42,065 bases of DNA, from assembly GCF_003334255.1 (NCBI RefSeq), contig NZ_QOWU01000050.1; one strand, 5' to 3'. Both the position numbers and the translations under genes were made by a program. Source of the stretch: Escherichia coli (GTDB lineage: Bacteria; Pseudomonadota; Gammaproteobacteria; Enterobacterales; Enterobacteriaceae). The notes under the pieces were generated by a model that saw nothing but the letters and a program-made list of their open reading frames with translations, did not search any database and had not been told where the DNA came from. This document shows positions 15,303 to 42,065 of the stretch, one piece after another. Each line of letters opens with the position of its first letter. Position 1 is the first letter of the stretch.

Positions 15303-15333
15303 AAAACGTCGGCACATTGTCGGCGTTTTTTTT
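15303..15333 (+). terminator. intrinsic terminator downstream of aroA
   Basis: aaaacgucggc-acauu-gucggcguuuu stem (two G-U wobbles) followed by a run of 8 T. Confidence 0.55.
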
Positions 15334-38817: not shown

Positions 38818-39465
38818 ATGAACTATCGTATTATTCCGGTCACCGCATTCTCCCAGAACTGTTCATTAATCTGGTGTGAACAAACCCGTCAGGCCGCACT
38901 GGTCGATCCTGGCGGCGATGCGGAAAAAATCAAACAGGAAGTTGATGACAGCGGCCTGACACTGATGCAGATCCTGCTGACGCATGGTCATCTGGACCAC
39001 GTTGGCGCAGCGGCGGAACTGGCGCAACATTACGGCGTGCCGGTTTTCGGCCCGGAAAAAGAAGATGAGTTCTGGCTGCAAGGCTTGCCTGCGCAAAGTC
39101 GTATGTTTGGTCTGGAAGAGTGCCAGCCGCTGACGCCAGATCGTTGGCTGAACGAAGGCGATACCATCAGCATAGGGAATGTGACTTTACAGGTGTTACA
39201 TTGCCCTGGGCATACGCCGGGTCATGTCGTGTTTTTTGATGATCGGGCAAAGCTGCTGATTTCTGGCGATGTTATTTTCAAAGGCGGAGTAGGGCGCAGT
39301 GACTTCCCGCGTGGCGATCATAATCAACTGATTTCTTCAATCAAAGATAAATTGCTGCCACTGGGGGATGACGTGATATTTATTCCGGGTCACGGACCAT
39401 TATCCACACTTGGTTATGAACGCCTGCATAATCCCTTCCTGCAAGACGAAATGCCCGTCTGGTAA
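38818..39465 (+). CDS. gloC: metallo-beta-lactamase-fold hydroxyacylglutathione hydrolase GloC (YcbL)
   Basis: 215-aa ORF with MBL motif [10 protein letters not shown]. Confidence 0.9.
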
Positions 39466-39528: not shown

Positions 39529-39626
39529 GCCGGATGCGGCACGAGCGCCTTATCCGGCCTACAAAATCGTGCAAATTCAAAATATTGCAGGGGACGCGTA
39601 GGCCTGATAAGCGTAGCGCATCAGGC
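39529..39626. repeat. BIME: two inverted REP (repetitive extragenic palindromic) units
   Basis: gccggatgcggcacgagcgccttatccggcctac (39529-39562) and inverted copy gtaggcctgataagcgtagcgcatcaggc (39598-39626) match the REP consensus family as I recall it; located between convergent gloC and aspC. Confidence 0.75.
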
Positions 39627-39686: not shown

Positions 39687-40877
39687 TTACAGCACTGCCA
39701 CAATCGCTTCGCACAGCGGAGCCATGTTATCTGGTGTCATCCCGGCCACATTTACGCGACCAGAAGCAACCGCATATACGCCAAACTCTTCGCGCAGACG
39801 CAGCACTTGTTCTTTTGTCAGGCCACTGAAGGAGAACATGCCGTTCTGTTTGATGATAAAGCTGAAGTCGCGGTTTGCGCCTTTTTCCTGCAGCGTATTG
39901 ACGAACAACTGACGCATACGCTGAATACGCTGGCGCATATCAGTCAGCTCTTGTTCCCAAATCGCACGTAACGCATCGTTGCTCAGGATGGTGGCAACAA
40001 CAGAAGCGCCGTGTGCTGGTGGGTTAGAGTAGTTAGCGCGAATCGCCGCTTTCATTTGGCTGAATGCGCGATCAACGGTTTCACTGTCGGCAGCAACCAG
40101 AGTACAAGCGCCAACACGCTCGTTGTACAGGCCAAAGTTTTTAGAGTAGGAACTGGCAACAATCAGCTCTTTATGCATAGCCGCGAAAGCGCGCAGTCCT
40201 TCAGCATCTTCTTCCAGACCACGGGCAAAACCCTGGTAAGCGAAGTCAAACAGCGGTAACCAGCCTTTCTCAACGGAGAGTTGTGCCAGTGTTTGCCATT
40301 GTTCCAGCGTAGGGTCGATACCGGTTGGGTTATGGCAGCAGCCATGGAACAGCACTACGTCGCCAGCCTGAGCTTCATTCAGGCTGTTAATCAGTGCATC
40401 GAAGTCAAGAGTGTGATTTTCCGCATCATAATAAGCGTATTCACGAACTTCCAGACCTGCAGAGTTAAAGACGCTCTTATGGTTCGGCCAGCTTGGGTTG
40501 CTCACCCACACACGCTTAACGCTGGTATTTTTTGCCAAGAAATCGGCAGCCACGCGTAGTGCGCCAGTGCCCCCCGGAGTCTGTGCCGTGCGAGCACGTT
40601 TGTCATTGATCAGGGCGCTACCTTTACCAAACAGCAGTTCCTGAGTGCAGCGACCAAATTCAGGGATGCCGTCAATGCCGAGGTAATTTTTGGTGGTTTC
40701 ATTTTCGAGCAGATACTGTTCAGCCTTTTTCACGCTGGTCAGTACCGGGGTTTTGCCCGTCTCATCTTTATAGACACCAATCCCGAGGTTAATTTTGCCG
40801 GGACGTTCATCGGCACGAAACAGATCGGCCAGGCCCAGAATCGGGTCGGCAGGAGCGGCGGTAATGTTCTCAAACAT
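39687..40877 (-). CDS. aspC: aspartate aminotransferase
   Basis: 396-aa ORF ([46 protein letters not shown]...), PLP-lysine context [14 protein letters not shown]. Confidence 0.97.
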
Positions 40878-41061: not shown

Positions 41062-41988
41062 TTAGAACTGGTAAACGATACCCACAGCAACGGTGTCGTC
41101 TGAACCTACGCCCAGTTTGTTGTCAGAATCGATCTGGTTGATGATGTAGTCAACATAGGTGGACATGTTTTTGTTGAAGTAGTAGGTTGCGCCCACTTCA
41201 AAGTAGTTCACCAGATCAACATCACCGATATCTTCTACGTCTTTCGCTTTAGATTTGGTGTAAGCGATGGACGGACGCAGACCGAAATCGAACTGGTATT
41301 GCGCAACTAACAGAACGTCTTGCGTTTTGTTGGCGAAGCCGCTGGTGTTTGTAAATTTATTAGTGATCGGCGTAGCGTTACGGGTTTCACCGTAGTTCGC
41401 TGCCAGGTAGATGTTGTTCGCGTCGTACTTCAGACCAGTAGCCCACTGTTCAGCTTTTTTACCGTTGCCAAGAGGTTGAGCTTCTTGCAGGTTGGTACGG
41501 TCAGCTGCACCATAAGCACCAACGATACCAAAGCCTTCGTATTCGTAGCTGATAGAACCGCCAACACCGTCGCCGTTAGAGCGGCGTGCAGTGTCACGCT
41601 CGTTTTTACCCAGGTACTGAACAGCGAAGTTCAGGCCATCAACCAGACCAAAGAAGTTGGAGTTACGATAGGTAGCAACGCCGCCAACACGACCAACGAA
41701 GAAGTCATCGCTGTATGCAGTATCACCACCAAATTCTGGCAGCATATCGGTGTAACCCAGTGCATCATAAACCACACCGTAGTTACGGCCGTAATCGAAA
41801 GAACCAATGTCAGCGTATTTAAGACCCGCGAATGCCAGACGCGTTTTGTTACCAGTTTGAGCGTCAGCGCCTTCAGAGTTGTTACCCTGGAAGTTATATT
41901 CCCACTGACCATAACCGGTCAGATCGGAATTGATTTGTGTTTCCCCTTTAAAACCAAGACGGGCATAAGTTTTGTCGCCGTTTCCGCC
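41062..41988 (-). pseudogene. ompF: outer membrane porin OmpF, 3' portion only (precursor codons 55-362); 5' end replaced by IS1
   Basis: Minus-strand translation reads [33 protein letters not shown]...[13 protein letters not shown], matching OmpF from mature residue 33 to the C-terminus. Upstream of 41988 the frame runs into IS1 sequence and hits the insB stop codon at 42004-42006; no signal peptide or start codon is present. Confidence 0.85.
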
Positions 41989-42065
41989 GGTAATGACTCC
42001 AACTTATTGATAGTGTTTTATGTTCAGATAATGCCCGATGACTTTGTCATGCAGCTCCACCGATT
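41989..42065 (-). mobile_element. insB: IS1 right end (terminal inverted repeat plus last 20 codons of insB), element continues beyond the window
   Basis: ggtaatgactccaacttattgatagtgttttatgttcagataatgcccgatgactttgtcatgcagctccaccgatt is the reverse complement of the IS1 right terminus as I recall it. Minus-strand translation gives ...SVELHDKVIGHYLNIKHYQ-stop, the InsB C-terminus, followed by the terminal repeat GGTAATGACTCC. Confidence 0.85.

Follow-up and report, generated by a model that had tools for sequence, protein, structure and literature searches.

The window analysed here, a 42,065-nt stretch of Escherichia coli DNA, carries towards its right end a 3′ remnant of the porin gene ompF, which is bordered on one side by aspC and on the other by the end of an IS1 element. 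The features at this locus, with OmpF residues given in mature numbering unless stated otherwise, are as follows.

39687..40877, minus strand: aspC, the usual downstream neighbour of ompF.
41062..41988, minus strand: 3′ remnant of ompF, comprising the codons of mature Gly33 to Phe340 (927 nt), assigned from its translation, nucleotide identity and aspC synteny.
41062–41064, minus strand: TAA stop codon of the ompF remnant.
41230..41232, minus strand: Asp285 codon GAT (precursor residue 307), in loop L7; K-12 has GGT, Gly.
41806..41808, minus strand: Ile93 codon ATT (precursor residue 115); K-12 has GTT, Val.
41938..41988, minus strand: retained part of a putatively recombinant tract (gene nt 163–213, loop L1 and strand 2), identical to the SMS-3-5-type allele and different from K-12 at 7 positions.
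41971..41973, minus strand: Lys38 codon AAA (precursor residue 60), two nucleotides away from the ATG (Met) of K-12.
41989..42065, minus strand: right end of IS1 (77 nt), with the terminal repeat GGTAATGACTCC... and the InsB C terminus ...HYLNIKHYQ followed by a TAA stop codon.

The protein encoded by the remnant matches PDB OmpF chains with E=6e-202 (305 of 308 residues identical), and its nucleotide sequence is 100% identical to RefSeq genes annotated ‘porin OmpF’. The gene occupies the aspC–ompF–asnS locus, as judged from the aspC side, where aspC adjoins it downstream as in K-12, BL21(DE3) and JP538; the asnS side lies beyond IS1, outside the window. A functional ompF comprises a promoter, a signal peptide and all 16 strands, whereas the window retains mature residues 33–340 alone, with IS1 sequence from 41989. 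An Rfam scan of the whole window returned a single family, the ES036 (CssrF) sRNA, at 39563–39605 on the plus strand (53 bits; gathering score, 37.6); this match falls between gloC and aspC, two convergent genes, and is unrelated to the ompF variants.

Thousands of places with the annotation IS1 family transposase match the stretch at 41989–42065. This stretch combines the sequence GGTAATGACTCCAACTTATTGAT from 41989 onward, which we take to be the right terminal repeat of IS1, with the adjacent 3′ end of insB. At the boundary the window has GCCGTTTCCGCC|GGTAATG in place of the GCCGTTTCCGCC|GTAACTG of intact relatives, and the break therefore falls between the Tyr32 and Gly33 codons. This exact IS1/ompF junction is absent from all 5,426 complete E. 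coli genomes searched, which therefore do not include the source strain; 6 of the 5,426 have ompF and IS1 in the same place, all at other positions, and from these sequences the ompF region appears to have been struck repeatedly by IS1 at different sites. In strain CUVET16-394, an IS1 copy lies between asnS and an intact ompF, upstream of the gene, and in ET734 an IS1X2 copy ends approximately 50 nt before the start of an intact ompF.

The insB frame (42004–42063, minus strand) is in phase with the ompF remnant and ends at its TAA five codons before Gly33. Translation of the junction predicts that no InsB–OmpF fusion is made. The remnant is without its 5′ region, its promoter-proximal part and its signal peptide; downstream of the insB stop, the earliest in-frame ATG, GTG or TTG is codon 104, at 41775. 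With no in-frame start upstream of it, neither K38 nor I93 could be translated in the source strain; there the two codons would persist as inert fossils of the ancestral allele.

A complete IS1 is 768 bp long and has an 8–9 bp target duplication; the window holds 77 nt of the element. As the window stops inside IS1, the junction may reflect either a simple insertion or an IS1-mediated deletion or rearrangement. A simple insertion would give a far flank ...AACAGTTACGGCGGAAAC joined to the left end of IS1, with the 9-bp sequence GGCGGAAAC in duplicate. At the opposite end, the first 76 nt of the window (positions 1–76) are the end of IS186/IS421, an element of the IS4 family; in 2,188 genomes they have 100% identical counterparts annotated ‘IS4-like element IS421 family transposase’. 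The insertion interrupts the GGGGTTTCGGCCCC hairpin, located between dmsC and ycaC; in JP538 this hairpin is uninterrupted (L016 ~236–262). The window looks like a whole short-read contig broken at repeats (k of approximately 77), with IS186 on the left and IS1 on the right, and a break of this kind would explain the absence of the far sides of both insertions.

The remnant is identical to ompF of K-12 MG1655 (WP_000977920.1) at 917 of 927 positions. Four of the 10 nucleotide differences give rise to three amino-acid changes and the other 6 are synonymous. The window encodes Lys38, Ile93 and Asp285, and is thereby distinct from the K-12/B reference allele, which has Met38, Val93 and Gly285; the OmpF of BL21(DE3) is the same protein as that of K-12, and M38, V93 and G285 are also present in three aligned PDB OmpF sequences (the 1opf/2omf group, 3fyx and 4gcp). 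A preliminary description of the window, working from an expected K-12 sequence, had reported two residues differing from K-12 at 41800–41976, an interval that contains both the Lys38 and the Ile93 codons. The expected motifs (GDMTYARL and KYADVGSFDYG) agree with MG1655, BL21(DE3) and the PDB chains, and an error in them, for which the description had allowed, is not the source of the differences, K-12 and B being truly Met38/Val93. Alignment against K-12, B and other lineages, as that description had proposed, left both differences in place, with neither Lys38 nor Ile93 in the reference allele. The two listed differences are real; the third, Gly285Asp, had been overlooked. Their placement near the first strands and first loop fits residue 38, which is near loop L1, and does not fit residue 93, which presumably lies in a short turn between strands 4 and 5 (2OMF topology). 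Residue 285, a glycine in the reference protein, belongs to loop L7 (PMC12152960), and precursor position 60 is called extracellular in PMC6691688.

Translated ompF genes of 15 fetched strains fall into three combinations at the informative sites. K-12, BL21, O157:H7, O111, IHE3034, ST131 and others have G26/E29/M38/V93; HS, ATCC 8739 and G1/2 have D26/V29/K38/I93; and SMS-3-5 and two others have D26/V29/K38/A93. Ile93 and Asp285 each differ from K-12 by one G>A transition within the K-12-like part of the gene. The Ile93 transition is characteristic of the HS-type allele, and Asp285 is an additional, rare change.

The frequency of each variant was estimated with a 61-mer centred on its codon, compared with the 5,426 complete genomes, an identity band of at least 99% being equivalent to an exact match. 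As exact matches rather than per-genome translations, the counts are lower bounds for each amino acid, and the complete genomes are a non-random sample of E. coli. At site 38, the L1/strand-2 haplotype of the window was found exactly in 762 genomes and matched in 770 (14%), and the K-12 haplotype was found exactly in 3,842 and matched in 4,651; together the two account for 5,421 of 5,426 genomes. The Ile93 61-mer is exact in 265 genomes (5%) and the Val93 61-mer in 4,615. In total, 4,922 genomes match either site-93 query and approximately 504 match neither, a number that fits the divergent allele class of approximately 514 genomes below 95% identity. Since 265 and approximately 504 add up to approximately 770, the counts indicate that K38 is present in two allele classes, with I93 marking the HS-type class (approximately 5% of genomes). 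Asp285 is much rarer: its 61-mer is exact in 23 genomes (0.4%), and nearly all the others are one mismatch off, like K-12.

The 23 genomes with D285 (gene nt 920, G>A) represent at least four ompF nucleotide backgrounds. Ten carry it on the HS-type mosaic; XJW9B263, CT29 and BS74R-D have it in an otherwise K-12-identical gene, as does ET734 with one extra synonymous change; AMSCJX03 and Z1324SEC0014 have it together with 8 synonymous differences to K-12; and MFDS1019527 has it in a gene that departs from K-12 at 9 other nucleotides, one of the changes being T247I. This distribution would fit either recurrent mutation or short-tract recombination. The neighbouring residue also varies, as E284D in the OmpF of ST131, and residues 284 and 285 are both at the tip of loop L7. 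According to PMC2581486, which cites Fourel et al. 1993, mutations of G285 and of the neighbouring Glu, in the outer loops, affect colicin N binding, and given this link, selection on loop L7 is possible.

A broader interpretation, compatible with simple inheritance of a natural allele although it claims more, is that the variants were selected for their function, being surface or pore polymorphisms in the intact ancestral allele. On this view, the L1/strand-2 boundary would gain a positive charge through Lys38, and Asp285, located at the loop L7 tip, would change how colicin N or porin-specific phages recognise the porin. The recurrence of G285D on at least four haplotypes among so few genomes speaks for it, as do E284D of ST131 beside residue 285, the location of Gly285 in loop L7 and the colicin N data. 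One small study also reports (PMC6691688) that E51/M60 versus V51/K60 is correlated with adhesion index. However, this correlation is confounded with phylogeny, short-tract recombination could move nt 920 between backgrounds without repeated mutation, and the gene is broken in the window, so that no function applies there. We regard selection of this kind as a minority possibility, and the narrower proposal that G285D arose repeatedly at the loop L7 tip and was positively selected as an escape variant as slightly more doubtful again. If the narrower proposal were true, natural E. coli would be diversifying loop L7 under pressure from colicin N or porin-specific phages.

Lys38 differs from the other two substitutions in its surroundings. 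Seven of the 10 differences to K-12 fall in the 51 nt beside the junction (scan-statistic P of approximately 1.5e-5), and divergence from K-12 is 13.7% in nt 163–213 versus 0.34% in the rest of the fragment; for comparison, divergence from BL21 across 31.9 kb of the window is 0.52%. In the complete window-type allele, as represented by G1/2, gene nt 120–213 match SMS-3-5 throughout and depart from K-12 at 14 positions, whereas the part from nt 237 onward departs from K-12 at 4 positions and from SMS-3-5 at 97. The window-type ompF is a mosaic, with an SMS-3-5-type tract in an otherwise K-12-like gene. The tract spans approximately 100 nt (gene nt 120–213), covers loop L1 and the beginning of strand 2, and in intact copies also encodes Asp26 and Val29. 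The remnant belongs to the HS-type mosaic class by its visible part, in which nt 163–213, K38 and I93 are present and identical; nt 120–162, with D26 and V29, lie beyond the IS1 junction and outside the window.

On this alignment, K38 is part of the tract and not an isolated point mutation, and the two-nucleotide change from Met to Lys would fit an imported old haplotype better than a new mutation. We infer that the tract originated by homologous recombination between ompF alleles. Gene conversion might be considered as the origin of the K38 cluster, with ompC or phoE as the paralogous donor, given that porin paralogues share sequence and that short ompC and phoE matches appeared in searches, but the tract is 100% identical to another class of ompF allele, the SMS-3-5 type, and no paralogue is needed. 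Gene conversion from ompC or phoE was rejected from this identity in an alignment of ompF alleles, and we consider it very improbable.

All 927 nt of the remnant are 100% identical to an intact, annotated ompF in 10 complete E. coli genomes: G1/2, G6/7, G8, JP538, WP7-S17-ESBL-04, B-1109, MB53, MB06232, PEC408 and cM8a. The protein in these genomes is WP_000977906.1 where checked, and a flank of 24.9 kb is approximately 100% identical to 8 of the 10. Over window positions 77–41988, the differences from JP538 are a pair of SNPs and a single T within a T-run. The SNP at 38891 (A versus T) gives GloC Leu25Gln, both JP538 and BL21(DE3) having Leu, and looks private to the source strain, at least by comparison with these two. 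The SNP at 40538 is C>T at nt 340 of aspC and is synonymous, and the run at 15319–15326 is T8 versus T7, in the aroA–ycaL intergenic region 3′ of a short hairpin.

On these identities, all three amino-acid differences pre-date the IS1 insertion. They are, as the preliminary description had supposed, strain polymorphisms and not products of the IS1 junction, the same nucleotides occurring in intact ompF of many natural isolates. Because the 927 nt are identical to intact ompF in relatives, assembly error near the junction and decay after the insertion are both excluded. Error could be suspected from the position of K38 just 15–17 nt from the IS1 boundary, from the bunching of differences beside the junction and from the way in which the window stops approximately 77 nt into an IS element at both ends, like a short-read contig; yet the K38 61-mer is exact in 762 complete genomes and the entire remnant in 10 with intact ompF, and sequencing or assembly error was rejected on this recurrence in independent finished genomes, leaving it hardly any credence. 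Pseudogene drift, in which the substitutions were gained under relaxed selection once IS1 had inactivated the gene, is just as implausible and was rejected since no substitution is private to the interrupted copy: there are 0 differences in 927 nt to the intact alleles of close relatives and just 3 differences from JP538 across the 41.9-kb flank, and K38, I93 and D285 are each present in functional genes.

The near absence of differences from intact relatives points to a recent IS1 insertion, after which no further change seems to have accumulated in the remnant. The source strain is neither K-12 nor B, and carried a natural ompF allele of the HS/ATCC 8739 type with one extra rare change before IS1 entered between the Tyr32 and Gly33 codons. 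We are confident that the window holds a natural non-K-12 ompF allele, WP_000977906.1 over the retained part, which was later cut by a recent IS1 insertion, and nothing was found that contradicts the natural-allele reading.

The overall significance of these differences is small. They are uninformative on the IS1 event, except in dating the insertion as very recent, and they identify the strain background as one with an HS/ATCC 8739-type ompF allele, in the G1/2–JP538 group and neither K-12 nor B. More generally, K-12 OmpF is not the sole ‘wild type’, the D26/V29/K38 loop-L1 haplotype being present in approximately 14% of complete E. coli genomes. Because the haplotype is this common, describing M60K as a resistance ‘mutation’ in clinical isolates (PMC8136739) over-reads a common allele.

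Among known alleles, WP_000977906.1 is the closest to the window, with which it agrees in all 927 bases, including K38, I93 and D285, and in an essentially identical flank of 25–42 kb; its copies are complete genes of 1,089 nt in which D26 and V29 precede the shared part, whereas the window copy is cut by IS1 after Tyr32. The ompF of HS and ATCC 8739 (WP_000977907.1) is the same D26/V29/K38 mosaic with I93 and differs at 1 nucleotide in 927, having Gly285 in place of Asp285. K-12/BL21(DE3) OmpF (WP_000977920.1; PDB 2OMF/1OPF) represents the same gene and locus with M38, V93 and G285, and 7 of its 10 nucleotide differences from the window are in the L1/strand-2 tract. The SMS-3-5-type class (WP_000977905.1, approximately 90% identical, approximately 500 genomes) is identical to the window allele over nt 120–213, the stretch encoding D26/V29/K38, but differs from it at 97 positions from nt 237 to the end, with Ala93, a protein 5 residues shorter and several changed loops.

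No match was found in the searchable literature for OmpF V115I or G307D in precursor numbering, or for G285D or M38K in mature numbering. The combination G48D/E51V/M60K has been reported in one clinical isolate (PMC8136739). Camprubi-Font et al. 2019 (PMC6691688) use precursor numbering, in which the M38K of the window is M60K; in the main text of that paper the variants are in complete genes, M60K and E51V are described as natural OmpF variants, and K60 is present in 20% of 30 non-AIEC isolates. M60K is already published as a natural variant, and the ompF feature of the window is a known, ordinary allelic polymorphism.
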